Positions 5,139-63,576 of a DNA stretch of 64,000 nucleotides are shown here, piece after piece. Source of the DNA: Candidatus Nomurabacteria bacterium (GTDB lineage: Bacteria; Patescibacteriota; Minisyncoccia; Phycocordibacterales; JAACPR01). The stretch covers positions 21,128 through 85,127 of the forward strand of contig JACKFZ010000005.1 in NCBI GenBank assembly GCA_020632215.1, written 5' to 3'. Under the pieces are notes generated by a model. It did no database searches and had not been told where the DNA came from. It saw only the letters and a program-made list of their open reading frames with translations. The translations under genes and the position numbers were made by a program. Every line of letters starts with the position of its first letter. Position 1 is the stretch's first letter.

Positions 5139-8100
5139 TTATTTTACAATACTAATCTTCACTTCTCCAAAACTTAGACCAACTACTTCTCCATCTTCAT
5201 CAATAAATTTAAATTCTGAAATACCAGCTGTACTTTCTATCTCTTTTCTAAACATGTGAATCAAATGTTCTGCTGATTTTGAAATAGTCAAAGTAATTTT
5301 GTCACTTGGCTTCAAATTCATATTTTTTCTCAGACTTTGGATAGAACGAATAAGCTCCCGAGAATCTCCTTCGTTTTTCAAATCTTCGGTAATATTTGTA
5401 TCTAGTTCAACTTTTTTGTCTAACCCAATATCATAATTTACTTCCTTAACATTGACTTCATCTTTTATAAGATCAATTAGGCTAGCTTCGTAATGAGATA
5501 TCTTCACGTTAGTCTTCATAGACTGAAGTGGTTGTCGAACTTTTATACCAGCCTTTGTCCTAGCTTCCAAAGCAATACTGATGAGGTCTCTAATTTCATA
5601 CATTCTCTGTATTAAAGATTGATCAAAACTAGATTTTTTACCAAATAATTTTGCAAAAAATGAAACACTTTGAACTTGTGGCCAATCTTCTAAGTGAACA
5701 CTTTCTTTTCTACCTCCAATTCTCTGATAAACATCTTCTGCAAGATAAGGAGTAAAAGGTGCCATTATTTTTGACAGTTCTATCAAAACAAATTTCATTG
5801 TTTTCAACGCATTTTCCTTATCACCATCTTCCTTAAATCTATCTCTAGATCTTCTAACATACCAAGTAGAAAGATCATCGATAAAATCCAAGATTGGTCT
5901 CTCTGCCCTATCAAGTTTGTATGCTTCCATATTTTCTGTCACTTCTGCAATTGTCTGAGACAATTTAGCTAAAATCCATTTATCTAAAATATTTTCTGAT
6001 TGACTTGAACCTTCTACTTTCTTATCGGCATAAAGTTTATAGAAGGAGACAACGTTTCTTAAACGTAAAATTATTTTTTTATAAATTTCATCAACTCCTT
6101 TTTCTGAAAAATTTAAGTCTTCTGATTGAACTACTGGTGAAGAAAGCAAATAATATCTTTCTGCATCAACACCATATTTATCAAAAATTAACCAAGGGTC
6201 TGGAAAATTGTTTTTTGATTTTGACATCTTTGATCCATCTTCGGCCAAAATATTCCCTGTTGTCACCACATTTTCAAATGGAACATTGTCAAATAGTATG
6301 GCTGAAAGAATATGTGTGTAATAAAACCATGTTCTTGTCTGAGCAATATACTCAGCTACAAACTGTGCTGGGAAATTTCTTTTGAAATTTTCTTTATTTT
6401 CAAAAGGATAATGTTTTTGTGCAAAAGGCATTGATCCAGACTCAACCCAACAATCAATAACTTCAGAGATTCTAGTAAACTTTTTGTCATTCTCTTCAAA
6501 AGTAATGTCGTCAATATATGGTCGGTGAAAATCTAATTCGTAATTATCGTTATGTGGAATTGTCGCGAAATCATATTTTTCGTAATATCCAGGAACAACG
6601 ACTTCTCCTATTTTTTTTCTCATAGAAACAGTATCTGTAATATCTAAACCATTTTGCATAGCCTTTAACATCCAGACACAATATTCGTGAGTAATGATAA
6701 GAATATTTTTTGCTTGATATTTTTTATCTATTTCATAAATAAAATCGCCACATCTTTTCCTCAAATCCAAAATAGACTCTCCACCTTTTGATGGTTTAGT
6801 CATTTTTTCTTCCAATGATGCGAATTGTTCTCGATATTCTTTGCCTAATTTACCATTAAAATTACCAGCTTGAATCTCTTTTATTCTGTCATCTACTAAA
6901 ACATTACTTTTATCCAAACCTAAGCCCTTAGCTACAATGTCTGCAGTTTGTGTTGTTCTATCCAACGGCGAAGTGATGATCAAATCAATATTTTGATTTT
7001 TGAAAAACTCTATTGAATTTCTGACTTCCTCTTTTCCTTTTTCTGTTAAATCACTTTTGACATCATTAGTTGAACAGACAAAATCATCAACATTGCTTTG
7101 TGCTTCACCATGTCGCATGACGAAATATTTGTTTGTGCTTTTTGTTTTTTCTTTTAATTCATCCAAAGATCCGAGAACTTTTAATTCCATTCCATCTTCA
7201 GATTTCCAAAAAGGCAAAGGTGACGCCCAATATCTATTTCTAGAAATGTTCCAATCTGGTGCACTTTCCATACTTTTTTTGAATCTTCCTTCTTTCAAAT
7301 GTTCTGGCACCCAATTGATCTTATTGTTCAAATCCAAAGCTCTTTGTTTAACACTTTGAATATTTATAAACCAAGCAGAAAGTGCGTTATAGAAAAGAGG
7401 AGTCTCACATCTAAAACAATGGGGGTAGGAGTGAATTATTTTTTCTTTTGAAAAAAGCTTCCCTCTATGTGCTAGATTTTTAATAATCTCGATATCTGTT
7501 GATTGGTGAAAATCTTTTTGTTCTGGTGTTGATTTTGGCTTTACTTTGATACCTGCAAACTCTGTCACTTTGTCTATAAAAGTGCCGTTTTGAGCAACAT
7601 GATAGATCAAAGGTAAATTAACCTTTTTTGCTAAAACCATATCTTCTTCACCATACACTGGTGCAAGATGGACAATTCCAGTTCCCTGCTCTGTGGTGAC
7701 ATAATCCGCATTCCATATTTTCCAAATATTTTCTTTATTCTTCAATGGAACATCTTTGAAGTAGTCAAAAACGGGCAAATAACTTTTACCGATCAGATCT
7801 TCTGTATTAACTTTTTCTCCATTAACATCTTCTTTAAAAACTTTTTCAGCTAAATCTTTAGCGACAATATATTTCCCATCTTCTCTAATAACTTGTATAT
7901 ATTCCAAATCTTTATTTATGGCAGCCGCCACATTTCCTGGTAAAGTCCACGGAGTGGTTGTCCAAGCAAGTAAATATGTTTTCAGTTCACTTGCCCCGTT
8001 TGACGCAGTCGTCGAAGACGACTTTTCGTCATTTACGGGGTCAATAAGTTCAAGCTTAACAGTGACAGAAATATCGGTTATGTCTTTGTAACTGTTGTCC

Positions 8101-35881: not shown

Positions 35882-36064
35882 ATTTTTATAAAAAAACTCC
35901 AACGGACCCGAAGGCTGGCTGGAGCGTGTATACCTACAATACTACACATTAACAACAAAAAGTCAATTGCAGGATATACACTTTTTATTACCTGATAGAT
36001 AGTTCTGATTTTAACTCCCATTAGAATACTCAAATTGGTATTGAAAAACAAAGCTGATTTAGCT

Positions 36065-36286
36065 GGGTCCTTATCGGGATTCGGTCACAAATCACTAAGC
36101 ATAATTCTTCACTCCCCTGAAATAAATTCAGGGTCGCTCGAATTCTGCCAAGTGTTCGCGACCCCGACTCGCCGACAAGCATTTTTGCTACGCAAAAATC
36201 TTGTATACCGGCTCCGTCTTTCGAATCCCGCTAAGGCCTCCAAAAATATGTTTCGCAAACGCTACGCATTTGCTTCAGTATTTTTG
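36065..36286 (-). repeat. tRNA-3'-linked conserved structured module (His copy): terminator, antisense tRNA 3' end, covarying hairpin, conserved core, direct repeat of tRNA-His 3' end
   Basis: Shares GTGTTCGCGACCCCGACTCG (36152..36173), TTCGAAAGACGGAGCC and GAAGAATTATGCTTAGTGATTTGTGAC with copies at 39170..39364, 45716..45915 and 52480..52626. 36065..36084 repeats the tRNA-His 3' 20 nt. Confidence 0.6.
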
Positions 36287-36359
36287 GGTCCTTATCGGGA
36301 TTCGAACCCGAACTGAGGGTTCCACAAACCCTAGTGCTAACCATTACACCATAAGGACC
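36287..36359 (-). tRNA. tRNA-His (anticodon GTG) with G-1 and C73
   Basis: Manual fold: G-1, acceptor GTCCTTA/TAAGGAC, D-arm GTGT-AATGGTTA-GCAC, anticodon loop TTGTGGA, T-arm TCGGG-TTCGAAT-CCCGA. Confidence 0.8.
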
Positions 36360-37605: not shown

Positions 37606-38610
37606 TTATTGCTTCAAAGTGATATATTTTTTATTCAATCTTAGAGAAACAAAACCAATAACAATCAACAATAGACCAGATAATACAAGAGTAAATGGCC
37701 AACCTAAACTATTCGCAAAATATTCACTGGTAATTTTTATAATATAAACCATAAGAAAAATAGAGCTGAACGTTAAGAATGACTTACTTCTCAAACGTAC
37801 ACTAAGCCAAATACCAATAAAAACTAAAATTGGAAAAGCTACTTCCCAAAACATGTTTTGCTCTGGAGAATAACCACCCAACACCAAAGTTGTAATAAAA
37901 AAGATTACCAAACCAAAACTATATAAAACACCAGTCAAAACCTTTAAATTATTTTTTAAAAATGAATACCCGAGAAGTATATATGATACGGCAACCAGCA
38001 TCGCTCGATATTCTTCAAAATCTGAATCTCCGAACTGTGGCGAGTTACCAACAAGGAAGCTAGTAAAACTAAAAATGAACCATGTTCCAAAAATAATATT
38101 AAACAAAGCAAAGAGAATAGTTCTAGAAATAGCAAAAGAGATTAAATAGAGAACAAAAAGAATAGCACTTACTGTTGCAGAAACTCCAAAACTAGTAATA
38201 TCAAAACCAGCGCTATCAAAAATAACAAATAGTCCGACCGGTAAAACAAGTCCAGCAATTAAATGAAAAGCATTACCAACAGCATGTAAGTTATTATGTC
38301 TATTCAAAATAACAGCCACTATATAAGCAACCAAGCCCGCACCGAAAGAAGACAATATCCTTGTTGTAGAACTCAATAAATCCCATGATTGCCATATCAG
38401 AACAACAATGCCTAGAAAAACTATTGCTCCTCCGATGTAATACAAAATGGTAGACAAAATAGAATTTTTGTTCCCTTTTCTACCGAAAATTCCTTTGCCG
38501 TAATAAAAAGATTCCAATACTTCATCTTCAGTTATCATTCCAAGAGAAGATAAGTCTTTTATTCGATTTAATACTTCTTCTTTATCCATATTTTTATCTA
38601 ATCCAACCAA
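37606..38610 (-). CDS. polytopic membrane protein, hypothetical
   Basis: 334-aa ORF with about eight TM helices. Confidence 0.4.
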   Translation of the reverse strand: MVGLDKNMDKEEVLNRIKDLSSLGMITEDEVLESFYYGKGIFGRKGNKNSILSTILYYIGGAIVFLGIVVLIWQSWDLLSSTTRILSSFGAGLVAYIVAVILNRHNNLHAVGNAFHLIAGLVLPVGLFVIFDSAGFDITSFGVSATVSAILFVLYLISFAISRTILFALFNIIFGTWFIFSFTSFLVGNSPQFGDSDFEEYRAMLVAVSYILLGYSFLKNNLKVLTGVLYSFGLVIFFITTLVLGGYSPEQNMFWEVAFPILVFIGIWLSVRLRSKSFLTFSSIFLMVYIIKITSEYFANSLGWPFTLVLSGLLLIVIGFVSLRLNKKYITLKQ

Positions 38611-39139
38611 TAAAACTAAATTGATAACGATAATCTGACATATCGACGTCTATATTGATTTCGGTACTGATGCCATGCCCACGAACAAACTGCTGGCGAC
38701 AATCTTCGCCAGAATCAAAAACAAAGAATATAAAACCATCTACCCTATTTCCACAAGACACTGAGAAATCATCGGGAGATTTTCCAGATGGATTGATTTC
38801 TAGATCTTGTGCATCTTCTAAGCTAATTTCACGACTTATCCTCTCTGACACATCGTACAAAAATAATCTTGGTTCTTCATAGACAGGAGCTTCTGGATAA
38901 ACCAATCTTGCATCGTAAATATCTTTATCAACTCGAAGATCTTTTTTCTCTATCCTTGAATCTTTGACAGCAAACTGACTCCCGCCGTAATAATAGTTAT
39001 CTTCGATAGAATAAACAAAGTCATTTTGTGGTTCTGGTGCAGATAATCTGGGAATATAAATACTCAGTAAAACTACAATTATTAGCAAAACTGGTAGAGA
39101 TAAACCGATTAACAGAGTTAGGTTTTCTTTCTTTAACAT
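38594..39139 (-). CDS. secreted/membrane-anchored hypothetical protein
   Basis: Track start 39178 is a TTG inside the tRNA-Leu direct repeat; the likely start is MLKKENLTLLIGL at 39139. N-terminal TM segment. Confidence 0.4.
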   Translation of the reverse strand: MLKKENLTLLIGLSLPVLLIIVVLLSIYIPRLSAPEPQNDFVYSIEDNYYYGGSQFAVKDSRIEKKDLRVDKDIYDARLVYPEAPVYEEPRLFLYDVSERISREISLEDAQDLEINPSGKSPDDFSVSCGNRVDGFIFFVFDSGEDCRQQFVRGHGISTEINIDVDMSDYRYQFSFIGWIR

Positions 39140-39169
39140 AATCTGATTATAACAGAAAATGTAATCAAT

Positions 39170-39364
39170 GGTGCACAAGAGAGGACTTGGTCACAAGTTT
39201 CTAAATTCGTCCTCGATTTCTCTCGGACTCATTAAGAACTTTCGACCCCGGCTCGCCCATCCCAGTTGCTTCGCAACAGGGACCCTAGGGCTCCGCCTTT
39301 CAAGTCCTCTATGTTTACTAAAATAAAGTCGCCGACTCCTGCGGAGCCGACTCTTTTATTTTAT
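39170..39364 (-). repeat. tRNA-3'-linked conserved structured module (Leu copy)
   Basis: Minus-strand read after tRNA-Leu: ataaaataaaagagtcggctccgcaggagtcggcgactttattttag / taaacatagaggacttgaaaggcggagcc / ctagggtccctgttgcgaagcaactgggat / gggcgagccggggtcgaaag... / ttgtgac + caagtcctctcttgtgcacca. Confidence 0.6.
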
Positions 39365-39448
39365 GTGCACAAGAGAGGACTTGAACCTCCACGCCCATAA
39401 GGGCACACCCACCTCAAGGGTGCGCGTCTACCAATTCCGCCACTCATG
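39365..39448 (-). tRNA. tRNA-Leu (anticodon GAG)
   Basis: Manual fold: acceptor GCATGAG/CTTGTGC (two G-U pairs), D-region TGGCGGAATTGGTAGACGCG as in bacterial tRNA-Leu, anticodon stem CACCC/GGGTG with loop TTGAGGT, long variable arm, T-arm GGAGG-TTCAAGT-CCTCT. Confidence 0.8.
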
Positions 39449-39549
39449 CAAGTGAATTTATCCAAACCAACAATTTGTTTTAATCCAAAGACAAGACGCT
39501 TTGTTATTATCTAAATAATTATTTATTTTTACAAGCAAAATAGAAGTTA

Positions 39550-45499: not shown

Positions 45500-45576
45500 G
45501 GGCGATTAGCTCAGTTGGCTAGAGCAACCCGTTTACACCGGGTAGGTCGGGGGTTCGAATCCCTCATCGCCCACCA
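45500..45576 (+). tRNA. tRNA-Val (anticodon TAC), CCA encoded
   Basis: GGGCGAT-TA-GCTC-AGTTGGCTA-GAGC-A-ACCCG-TTTACAC-CGGGT-AGGTC-GGGGG-TTCGAAT-CCCTC-ATCGCCC-A-CCA. Confidence 0.85.
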
Positions 45577-45643
45577 CTTCATCAAAACAACAAGGCACTT
45601 CTAAGTGCAGTAAGTAATGTTGTCTTGAGAAGTTATGCTATCC

Positions 45644-45715
45644 GCTCCCGTAGTTCAATGGATAGAACAGGGGACTTCTAAGCCTCTGATGTAGGTTCGA
45701 TTCCTGCCGGGAGCA
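45644..45715 (+). tRNA. tRNA-Arg (anticodon TCT)
   Basis: Acceptor GCTCCCG/CGGGAGC, anticodon loop CTTCTAA, T-loop TTCGATT. Confidence 0.8.
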
Positions 45716-45915
45716 CAAAAAAACAATGAGTCGGACACGAAGTGTATGGAAATTTGTTTTTAGTGCTATCCGCAGGAATCGAAAGGCGGAAACAAAAAGT
45801 CTGGAGGAACGAAGACTTTTTGTTGAGCCGGGGTCGCGAGCACTTAGTATAATTCGAGCTGAGAGCGAAGAATTATACTTAGTGACTTGTGACCGATTCC
45901 TGCCGGGAGCACCAA
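45716..45915 (+). repeat. tRNA-3'-linked conserved structured module (Arg copy)
   Basis: A-rich terminator; tgctatccgcaggaatcgaaaggcggaaac (antisense of the tRNA-Arg 3' end); a hairpin; gagccggggtcgcgagcacttagtataattcgagctgagagcgaagaattatacttagtgacttgtgac; then cgattcctgccgggagcacca (tRNA 3' end + CCA). Confidence 0.6.
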
Positions 45916-52299: not shown

Positions 52300-52479
52300 T
52301 ATAGAATCATAATTCTAAATCTTAACAAAACCCTAAAGGTCTAGTTTCATGCCACGATTTTTACTTAATATACCCATATTACCAATTAAGAGTTTTTTAG
52401 TCACTACAGGACACACGGATCACACAAATACTAAATTCTTACTGCGGGGCATTTTTTACACAAAAATTTGAGATTATAA

Positions 52480-52626
52480 AATACAAAGTGTTCGCGACCC
52501 CGACTCGGCCATCCCACGTAGAAGGCTACGCCTTCTACGTGGGACCCTGGGCCTCCGTCTTTCGAATCCCCTCCTCCTGTAAAATAAAAGTCGGACAACG
52601 CTTCGCGTTGCCCTCCTTTATTTTAT
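52480..52626 (-). repeat. tRNA-3'-linked conserved structured module (Ser copy; no terminal direct repeat seen)
   Basis: cataaaataaaggagggcaacgcgaagcgttgtccgacttttattttac / aggaggaggggattcgaaagacggaggcc / cagggtcccacgtagaaggcgtagccttctacgtgggat / ggccgagtcggggtcgcgaacactttg. Confidence 0.55.
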
Positions 52627-52713
52627 GCGGAGGGAGTGAGATTCGAACTCACGGTCCCCTTTCGGAGACTCCGGTTTTCAAGACCGGTGCATTCAACCAC
52701 TCTGCCATCCCTC
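52627..52713 (-). tRNA. tRNA-Ser (anticodon TGA)
   Basis: GGAGGGA-TG-GCAGAGTGGTTGAATGCACC-GGTCT-TGA-AAACCGG-long variable arm-GTGAG-TTCGAAT-CTCAC-TCCCTCC-G. Confidence 0.75.
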
Positions 52714-52806
52714 CAGATCAAAGTGTTCTACAAGATTAAACTGAAATGAGGATATTTTCAAGTCTTTACCATAGCTAGCTACCTCATCTTAGGTTAAAAT
52801 ATTCTC

Positions 52807-63359: not shown

Positions 63360-63439
63360 TTTTGAATACTATCTCATGTTGTCTAAATTAATTATAAATA
63401 AGTTCTAAACTAGATGGTCACATAAAGTTCGTTGCAAAA

Positions 63440-63503
63440 CAACTCACCACGTGACTAAAATAAAAGTCACCGACTCCTGCGGAGCCGGTTCCTTTATTTT
63501 ATG
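63440..63503 (-). terminator. A/T-flanked GC hairpin module after tRNA-Lys, near-identical to the one after tRNA-Leu
   Basis: aaagtcaccgactcctgcggagccggttcctttattttatg vs aaagtcgccgactcctgcggagccgactcttttattttatg (39327..39367). Confidence 0.6.
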
Positions 63504-63576
63504 TCCACCCGGCAGGGCTCGAACCTGCGACCCTCTGCTTAAAAGGCAGGTGCTCTACCAGCTGAGCTACGGGTGG
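63504..63576 (-). tRNA. tRNA-Lys (anticodon TTT)
   Basis: CCACCCG-TA-GCTC-AGCTGGTA-GAGC-A-CCTGC-CTTTTAA-GCAGA-GGGTC-GCAGG-TTCGAGC-CCTGC-CGGGTGG-A; unusual C1:G72. Confidence 0.7.

Follow-up and report, generated by a model that had tools for sequence, protein, structure and literature searches.

In 2002, Williams is said to have described genomic islands and prophages that integrate in the T loop of transfer RNA (tRNA) or transfer-messenger RNA (tmRNA) genes, at the att sites of tyrosine integrases. Miniature inverted-repeat transposable elements (MITEs) and cis-mobilizable elements (CIMEs, remnants of integrative elements) are miniature and non-autonomous; class C group II introns insert after terminator hairpins; the bridge RNA of IS110 and the omega RNAs of TnpB and IscB are guide-bearing RNAs of mobile elements; and tRNA-like domains are found in tmRNA, in the bacterial Y RNA YrlA, and in the viral tRNA-like structures. 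In Patescibacteria, also called the candidate phyla radiation (CPR), group I introns have been described in tRNA genes and in the T loop of tmRNA (PMC13011429; 10.1101/2020.01.27.920355), and one of these studies reports no group II introns there (PMC13011429). Here, we analyzed a 64,000-nt stretch of a Candidatus Nomurabacteria genome (assembly GCA_020632215.1, contig JACKFZ010000005.1, positions 21,128 to 85,127; the window), in which four of the seven tRNA genes found by ARAGORN carry a structured module directly downstream on the same strand. The module folds into a conserved, strand-specific three-way junction, is present in more than 100 genomes of two phyla, CPR/Patescibacteria and Elusimicrobia, and is present or absent at the same tRNA genes of related genomes. 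Tentatively, we interpret it as a miniature integrative element, non-autonomous and directed at tRNA and tmRNA genes, that enters at the T loop.

A strand-specific three-way junction

A preliminary description of the window had proposed that one five-part architecture follows the genes for tRNA-His, tRNA-Leu, tRNA-Arg(TCT), and tRNA-Ser. All four copies are present, each on the strand of its tRNA (Table 1). Part 1 is an A-run, a hairpin, and a T-run; part 2 is antisense to segment X, the 18 nt from C56 to N73 of the tRNA; a core with two hairpins follows; and part 5 is a direct copy of X. The two core motifs quoted in that description occur exactly four times in the window, at the module sites alone. 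A covariance model (R1; 113 positions, 30 base pairs) trained on 52 compact modules, all of them taken from other genomes and none from the window, recovers just these four copies, with E-values of 3e-17 (Arg), 6e-17 (Leu), 2e-6 (His), and 3e-5 (Ser); the remaining tRNA genes, Val, Arg-GCG, and Lys, have no full module.

On the tRNA-sense strand, the module forms a three-way junction of P1 (part 2 paired with part 5) and the hairpins P2 and P3. From 5' to 3', the consensus runs from the P1 5' strand (..GGAWTC-G) through AAA, one strand of a 3-bp helix (G-R-C), GGA, and the P2 hairpin, and then through GAG, the second strand of the helix (G-Y-C), GGG, and the P3 hairpin, which opens with GUCG, closes with UGAC, and leads directly into the P1 3' strand (CGAWUCC...). 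The AAA and GGG junctions and the tandem G.A are near-invariant, with the caveat that the search pattern itself accounts for part of the invariance of the two long motifs and that pattern-free matches are more variable. The G.U pair at the base of P3 is identical in 52 of 52 aligned modules, and P3 and P1 abut without a spacer. In the alignment of these 52 independent modules (A2), 88.8% of the cells assigned to pairs are paired, compared to 72.7% after shuffling and 30 to 45% when the partners are slid by 1 to 3 columns, and changes on both sides of a pair are found in 300 cells (106 in shuffles) and in 21 of the 30 pairs. The middle pair of the 3-bp helix, for instance, is A:U in 26 sequences and G:C in 25, with C:G and U:A also seen among pattern-free matches. 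In a common variant of the P1 5' strand, ..GAUGA-G, two Watson-Crick pairs are replaced by a tandem G.A/A.G opposite G57 and A58, and the helix is retained (judged by eye); as a purely structural remark, this tandem recalls box C/D RNAs or the K-turn.

The strand preference is clear: in 118 of 119 modules, the strand in tRNA sense gives a more stable fold than the opposite strand, with a mean advantage of 11 kcal/mol, and G.U pairs number 370 on the sense strand versus 141 on the antisense strand. On these same figures we rejected antisense transcription, that is, a guide RNA ending at a bidirectional hairpin. Single-sequence folding of the window modules gives the same junction, with z-scores of −9.8 (Arg), −4.5 (Leu), and −8.5 (His). 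Orthologous tmRNA modules in two genomes (loci L010 and L024) show compensatory changes relative to each other where P2 has its tip, and differences have accumulated faster in their outer part 5 than in the core. Covariation, strand bias, and compensatory change thus uphold the earlier proposal of a selected RNA structure as opposed to random decay.

These results leave it highly improbable that the module is a plain terminator/promoter cassette or a decaying duplicate of a tRNA, a pseudogene with no function. Such a reading could appeal to part 1, which the preliminary description had called a terminator and which passes a simple terminator scan in the Ser and Leu copies (those of His and Arg do not pass), and to part 5, which decays by point mutation. 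Yet the copies align over the whole fold, R1 recovers the module across two phyla, the covariation lies far above that of the shuffled and slid controls, and all 30 covarying pairs lie downstream of part 1. Moreover, part 2 complements the 3' strand and is not a copy of the tRNA 5' half, and therefore the module is not a tRNA pseudogene.

The minimum-energy fold of the tRNA-Arg transcript with its module reveals a second arrangement, in which the 5' strands of the tRNA pair with part 5, and part 2 and the upstream X make up a long hairpin (P0) with part 1 at its tip. This is the mirror image of an intact tRNA followed by the P1 junction. The fold suggests that everything between C56 and GTGAC is a self-contained unit that would behave as a T-loop insert; if the two ends of this unit were joined, P0, P2, and P3 would assemble into the same junction, closed.

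The near-invariant junction raises the question of catalysis. A small ribozyme could cleave itself or ligate at the joint of P3 and P1 (GUGAC|C56) as part of an RNA-level mobile or circular element akin to viroid-like RNAs or retrozymes, in which case the element could enter or leave the T loop of tRNA transcripts and its DNA copies would be fixed secondarily. The unvarying G.U at the base of P3, the missing spacer, the strong strand specificity, and the lack of a protein partner speak for such an RNA; the tandem units described below look like rolling-circle products, and a circular permutation of the unit would close the junction. We nevertheless regard a ribozyme as unlikely. A permissive Rfam scan (E ≤ 10) returned no known ribozyme or intron family: the His module had no match, and the Arg module had one chance miRNA match at E 1.3. 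In the window as a whole, the seven tRNAs alone reach the gathering score of Rfam 15. The hammerhead core CUGAUGA is absent by eye, although GAAA is present, and the apparent invariance stems largely from the search pattern, as pattern-free matches vary more. An intron version of this idea fails, since the tRNA upstream of the module is whole and represents the better of the two copies and no tRNA is broken by the core alone. Viral contigs gave a single chance match, inside an open reading frame (ORF), and nothing else; a phage origin was rejected on this result.

The tRNA 3' end in parts 2 and 5

Wherever it is detected, part 5 begins at C56 of the T loop; its right end lies 6 to more than 50 nt further on, often at the end of the tRNA and sometimes past it. 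Immediately before C56, the module reads AC and the tRNA reads TT in nearly all cases; where it does not, the alignment is spurious or involves the second copy of a tandem unit. The wobble pairs of the tRNA T stem allow the origin of part 2 to be traced: at these positions it has, in 20 cases, the base that makes a Watson-Crick pair with the 3' strand and, in 3 cases, the base found in the tRNA 5' strand. Part 2 was therefore copied from X and is not a shortened tRNA 5' half. A deleted 5' half, as in a mini-tRNA pseudogene, was rejected by this test. The module thus has a boundary fixed at C56, and its part 2 is a templated antisense copy of the target.

Within the window, the proposal that part 2 is the reverse complement of the 3' end of its tRNA holds well for His and Arg and more weakly for Leu and Ser (Table 1; ungapped Watson-Crick counts over 18 nt). 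An adjoining block that had been called invariant, TTCGAAAGRCGGAGCC, is exact in His; it ends in GGC in Ser and reads CTTGAAAGGCGGAGCC in Leu and ATCGAAAGGCGGAAAC in Arg, the latter two deviating because the bases preceding GAAAG follow the T loop of each tRNA. Parts 2 and 5 had also been expected to close a long stem. They do pair, as P1, but the full length is not required: the general part of P1, including its T-stem section, is the inner 8 to 12 bp, and pairing beyond ~9 bp is near chance. A long part 2 and a full part 5 are anticorrelated (Spearman −0.36, p 0.001), with 45 modules having a full part 5 only, 12 a long part 2 only, 5 both (the His and Arg modules of the window included), and 20 neither. 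This fits decay from a state in which both segments were present.

In 12 loci the two copies of X differ, and in every one of them the upstream X pairs perfectly with the 5' strands of the tRNA (7/7 in the acceptor stem and 5/5 in the T stem), with a defective part 5 in 8 of the 12. The working gene is therefore the upstream tRNA, whereas part 5 drifts. We rejected a T-loop intron whose true 3' exon would be part 5: the upstream copy is functional, the idea that part 5 supplies CCA is not general, and tRNA-Ser has no usable part 5.

Some modules resemble tRNA more closely than others. Perfect acceptor pairing (7/7) is found in 12 of 95 modules, compared to 4.6 expected, and clusters at a gap of 23 to 26 nt (7 loci); in one subset, which includes L104, a hairpin splits part 2 exactly between the acceptor-stem and T-stem complements. 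Of 40 loci with a gene that does not encode CCA, 6 have it directly behind part 5, among them Leu and Arg of the window, with no consistent bias over all loci. As a separate observation, a 20-nt GC palindrome, CCTGCCTGCCGGCAGGCAGG, splits part 5 after CGAATC in a tRNA-Ser module on the minus strand (L034).

These features invite a reading of the module as a stable tRNA-mimic RNA of ~130 to 200 nt that serves the host. It would be transcribed together with the tRNA when part 1 is read through and excised by RNase P and RNase Z, which would cleave it because P1, with N73(CCA), imitates a T stem stacked on an acceptor stem. Such an RNA might act as a decoy or partner of an enzyme that reads the acceptor or T arm or as a sensor that switches between P0 and P1. 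Co-transcription is plausible because no promoter-like site was found in front of the modules, and no mobility gene is linked to them; a fold kept by compensatory change, both between orthologous loci and across phyla, would likewise suit a host RNA. We consider this reading doubtful, however. Most modules have no acceptor-like pairing, part 5 is truncated in many copies, and P1 is near chance beyond its inner part. The same tRNA genes lack the module in related genomes, selfish DNA is what the tandem and decayed copies and the tRNA-less fragments (L066 and L112) resemble, and there would be no need for a host RNA to be built anew for each of at least 17 tRNA types.

Table 1. Position and makeup of the four modules of the window and of the stretch behind tRNA-Lys (X, tRNA C56-N73)
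Feature	Position	Strand	Description
tRNA-His	36286..36358	-	X = 36287-36304, copied in parts 2 and 5
His part 1	36241..36285	-	A-run, GC hairpin, T-run; by analogy with the Arg fold, would be the apical section of a long P0 hairpin with X:part 2 as its base
His part 2 (X')	36222..36239	-	Antisense to tRNA-His C56-N73, 15/18; P1 5' strand
His core	36084..36221	-	J1/2 AAA, P2a GAC:GTC, GGA/GAG tandem G.A, P2 hairpin, J2/3 GGG, P3
His P3	in core, 36084..36221	-	Long, with an additional inner hairpin; terminates in GTGAC
His part 5	36064..36083	-	Direct copy of tRNA-His C56-N73 + CA; P1 3' strand
tRNA-Leu(GAG)	39365..39449	-	X = 39366-39383
Leu part 1	39319..39364	-	Terminator-like hairpin, A- and T-runs at its sides; near-identical to the hairpin downstream of tRNA-Lys
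Leu part 2 + core	39190..39318	-	Part 2 = 39301-39318, 12/18 antisense to X; core P2a, P2, GGG, P3, GTGAC
Leu part 5	39169..39189	-	C56-N73 copy 18/18, then CCA; the gene itself has CAT there
tRNA-Arg(TCT)	45644..45716	+	X = 45698-45715
Arg part 1	45717..45763	+	A-run, short hairpin, T-run
Arg part 2 + core	45764..45893	+	Part 2 = 45764-45781, 15/18 antisense to X; core AAA, GGC:GCC, P2, GGG, P3, GTGAC
Arg part 5	45894..45914	+	C56-N73 copy 18/18, then CCA; the gene itself has CAA there
tRNA-Ser(TGA)	52627..52714	-	X = 52628-52645
Ser part 1	52581..52626	-	Terminator-like hairpin
Ser part 2 + core	52418..52580	-	Part 2 = 52563-52580, ~10/18 (counted by eye); P3 enlarged, partly decayed, end GTGTGATC
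Ser past P3	52400-52417	-	Match to tRNA lost (decayed part 5)
Downstream of tRNA-Lys (63503-63576)	63380..63502	-	Hairpin ATAAAATAAAGGAACCGGCTCCGCAGGAGTCGGTGACTTTTATTTTAG near-identical to Leu part 1, then ~45 nt ending CTTTATGTGACC (compared by eye)

The copies in the window differ in their state of preservation. The Ser copy is longer than the preliminary description had it, with P3 reaching ~52418, and the missing direct repeat noted there corresponds to a decayed part 5. Behind the hairpin downstream of tRNA-Lys, the short stretch ends in ATGTGACC; compared by eye, it is possibly a module with most of the core deleted. The heptamer GAGTCGG, which belongs to the core motif GAGTCGGGGTCG, recurs in the part-1 hairpins of Leu (39331-39351, doubled as a direct repeat), Lys, and Arg (45728-45735), and part 1 could be what is left of an earlier module. 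In Arg part 2, the 9 nt GCTATCCGC (45764-45772) equal positions 45637-45645, that is, a 7-nt leader and the first two bases of tRNA-Arg(TCT); this match is probably a coincidence, but it may alternatively be a trace of how part 2 arose. Most tRNA genes of this clade, including Arg-TCT, Arg-GCG, Leu, Ser, and Lys of the window and the genes of relatives, have CA and not CCA after the discriminator (e.g., 39363-39365 and 45716-45718); tRNA-Val of the window (45500-45576) encodes the full CCA.

Distribution, gain and loss, and neighbors

We scanned one genome per species for an exact pattern, GAAAGRCGGA followed after 24 to 54 nt by GAGYCGGGGTCG. Among the matches listed, at least 120 loci were found, nearly all in Patescibacteria (Saccharibacteria, Paceibacterota, Kaiserbacteria, and others) and six in Elusimicrobia, and about five matches in GC-rich coding DNA are due to chance. 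A tRNA on the same strand ends ~63 nt upstream of 84 of the 126 pattern matches; ARAGORN placed a tmRNA upstream of at least three, two further tmRNA loci were seen, and the tRNAs linked to modules cover at least 17 amino-acid types. Model R1 yielded 127 matches in 100 loci, 29 of them outside the search pattern, and many of the 8-kb loci contain several modules. Neither Rfam 15 nor full-text searches of the literature yielded a description of the module, and we therefore rate it as a new kind of element with a previously undescribed structured RNA fold.

A second, related family was noticed, in which GCGAGGCGGTGCCCAGAC and a hairpin are followed by GTCGAGGGAGAnATYCC and then a copy of a tRNA 3' end. 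Its sites are L052 (~6540-6640), L099 (3498-3643), L093 (3803-3915), L118 (350-470), and L023, behind the module of that locus. It often stands in tandem behind a module of the first family, and R1 detects it weakly.

By homologs of its ribosomal protein L19 (rplS), the organism of the window belongs among CPR bacteria of the Paceibacteria/Parcubacteria type. Presence and absence of the module can be followed in two relatives of the window genome (L123 and L124), whose L19 is ~86% identical. Both have the gene order of the window (L19, tRNA-Leu, Na/Ca exchanger, tRNA-His) as well as a tRNA-Arg(TCT), and in both the tRNA-Leu, tRNA-His, and tRNA-Arg(TCT) genes are bare, with no hairpin, no module, and no match to the model. 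The relatives are too distant for the flanks to be aligned. The comparison of orthologous tRNA loci that the preliminary description had suggested has thus turned up relatives without the module, and this points to insertion and not to a fixed tRNA trailer. Between the Leu module and the Na/Ca exchanger, the window has on its minus strand a 194-aa ORF without a Pfam match (38594-39178) and a DUF2157 membrane protein (37606-38610); in L123 and L124 the Na/Ca exchanger comes directly after tRNA-Leu. The region next to the module has therefore gained or lost genes as well.

Further signs of turnover come from other loci. Tandem units of X, part 1, part 2, and core are present in L104 and L088, and module fragments without a tRNA in L066 and L112. 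Assemblies of the same species end at modules: in L128-L131, short-read contigs whose proteins are identical to the Na/Ca exchanger and VKOR of the window stop ~100 to 200 nt from the tRNA or module, as would be expected if modules are repeats that break assemblies. The use of identical flanking proteins to find strain variants was given up for the same reason. In L021 (1190-3900), two nested insertion sequences of the IS3 family, with rve and HTH_Tnp domains, separate tRNA-Ser(TGA) from its module, so that the module and its part 5 (17/17 to the tRNA) now lie 2.7 kb from the gene. L014 probably has the same type of arrangement, the sequence just upstream of the module being common to both. 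In L001 (350-5411), tRNA-Gln and a module with a 16/17 match in part 5 lie 5 kb apart, and the interval encodes a periplasmic-binding-like protein and several ORFs without a Pfam match; no integrase was recognized in it.

When 822 neighboring ORFs were clustered, housekeeping families alone emerged, and no protein family recurs beside the modules; the idea of a linked enzyme was dropped accordingly. No module carries an ORF or a large insertion in P3, so versions bearing an ORF were also discarded, the gaps in L021 and L001 being secondary IS3-family insertions or unrelated genes. Fold-back replication, in which part 1 would be a palindromized native trailer, predicts the left half of part 1 after part 5. 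This was found in L033, L088, and L098 but not in the window or at most loci, and the idea was rejected.

Proposed integration at the T loop and known systems

How could a module of this kind arise? Under the interpretation we tentatively favor, that of a miniature non-autonomous integrative element, the unit would span from C56 in the T loop of the tRNA to the GTGAC ahead of part 5. It would comprise, in this order, a replacement tRNA 3' end (X), the part-1 hairpin that ends the tRNA gene, part 2, and P2 and P3 with their near-invariant junctions, whereas part 5 would be a second X, the displaced native 3' end, and would mark the far boundary like the attL/attR of T-loop integrators. Part 2 can pair with part 5, in the three-way junction (P1), or with the upstream X (P0), and in a unit excised as a circle, P0, P2, and P3 would make up the same junction, fully closed. 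Insertion and loss would take place by crossover of the tRNA T loop (..TT|CGA..) with the T-loop-like joint of the element (..GAC|CGA..); because no enzyme is encoded nearby, the crossover would depend either on the fold itself or on an enzyme whose gene lies elsewhere. At insertion, parts 2 and 5 would be written from the target. They would be perfect in fresh insertions, as in His and Arg of the window, and later selection would keep the fold as the outer ends decay. The conserved fold, on which the element would depend, would act on the tRNA-sense strand as RNA or possibly as single-stranded DNA. Mobility as such, the crossover, the circular form, and the choice between RNA and DNA as the active molecule are inferred.

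Several observations weigh against an integrative element. No integrase, transposase, or reverse transcriptase is linked to the module among the clustered neighboring ORFs, no autonomous relative was found among the module loci examined, and neither an excised form nor an exact empty site in a close strain was seen. Retargeting to at least 17 tRNA types requires the right 3' end each time, and to our knowledge there is no known way for an element to achieve this. Copies within a genome are barely more alike than copies from different genomes (P3 identity of 0.67 versus 0.53), and there is no sign of a recent burst. In addition, the selection on the fold in place, seen in L010 and L024, fits a host function equally well, and part 5 of Leu and Arg in the window ends in CCA where the genes do not, which is unexpected for a displaced native end.

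The T-loop-integrating islands share many features with the module. In both, the targets are tRNA and tmRNA genes; a direct repeat of the tRNA 3' part runs from inside the T loop to or past the 3' end (from C56 over 6 to more than 50 nt in our case); the upstream copy completes a working tRNA, with the downstream copy as a leftover; and presence varies among relatives, as at the tRNA genes of L123 and L124, whose flanks cannot be aligned. However, the module is an insert of ~200 nt that contains no integrase and has no recurrent neighbor family, it bears an additional antisense copy of the target and a covarying, strand-specific fold, and one family serves at least 17 tRNA types. MITEs and CIMEs are likewise small, gene-less, and multicopy, with inverted-repeat ends and tandem and decayed copies. 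MITEs, like their autonomous insertion sequence, have terminal inverted repeats of fixed sequence, and their target duplication is short and of fixed length, whereas the inverted ends of the module differ per tRNA, being copied from each target, the length of the duplication varies, and no autonomous partner was found; what is conserved is structure and junction bases, on one strand.

The comparison with introns shows a similar mixture. Group I introns occur in the same hosts and genes, at the T-loop position in tmRNA, and are protein-free structured RNAs with an exon-pairing guide. Unlike them, the module is a simple three-way junction in which the P3-P7 core (or any conserved P3-P9 core) is lacking, as are the U.G of the 5' site and the terminal G; it gave no match to the Intron_gpI model. 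It also does not interrupt a gene: with the upstream tRNA intact and functional, nothing needs splicing. Similarly to class C group II introns, the module stands right after a terminator-like hairpin, in the orientation of the gene, and carries a guide complementary to the upstream sequence; in contrast to these introns, it measures ~130 to 160 nt and not more than 600 and has neither domain V/VI nor a reverse transcriptase.

As in the guide RNAs of IS110, TnpB, and IscB, a structured scaffold is flanked by target-matching sequence that varies per copy. Here, however, the two target-matching segments pair with each other, no recombinase or nuclease gene adjoins the module, no neighbor gene recurs, and Rfam, HEARO included, gave no match. 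Tail and head of the module pair in a way that may mimic an acceptor/T arm, sometimes with CCA, as in tRNA-like domains, but such mimicry would be of the neighboring tRNA specifically and is complete in a minority of copies, and the module has a two-hairpin junction in place of the T loop. As to simpler RNA classes, an intrinsic terminator alone does not account for the 30 covarying pairs beyond part 1, which is itself terminator-like in two of four copies, and the family-specific core of a small self-cleaving ribozyme, hammerhead included, was not found in Rfam comparisons.

A further, more speculative proposal, which we consider rather improbable, is that the module may represent a new class of RNA-structured mobile element, protein-free or mobilized in trans, a closed unit of ~200 to 230 nt with three hairpins that is circular when free. 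Such an element would dock on the T loop of any tRNA or tmRNA and write the 3' end of its target into itself both ways, which would give it a self-retargeting, guide-like closing stem, with the conserved junction as the catalytic or recognition center.

CPR genomes are tiny, yet four of seven tRNA genes in 64 kb bear a module of ~200 nt, and an RNA fold this abundant, in more than 100 genomes of two phyla, is missing from Rfam and apparently from the literature. Its closing stem is written from the adjoining tRNA in both antisense and sense, and we know of no transposition, integration, or intron mechanism that explains such a target-written stem. On the practical side, modules break assemblies at tRNA loci and can mislead island finders that use tRNA fragments as boundaries. 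On one hand, if the module is mobile, it would be a case of natural retargeting by copying the target. On the other hand, if it serves the host, it would be a tRNA-specific mimic.

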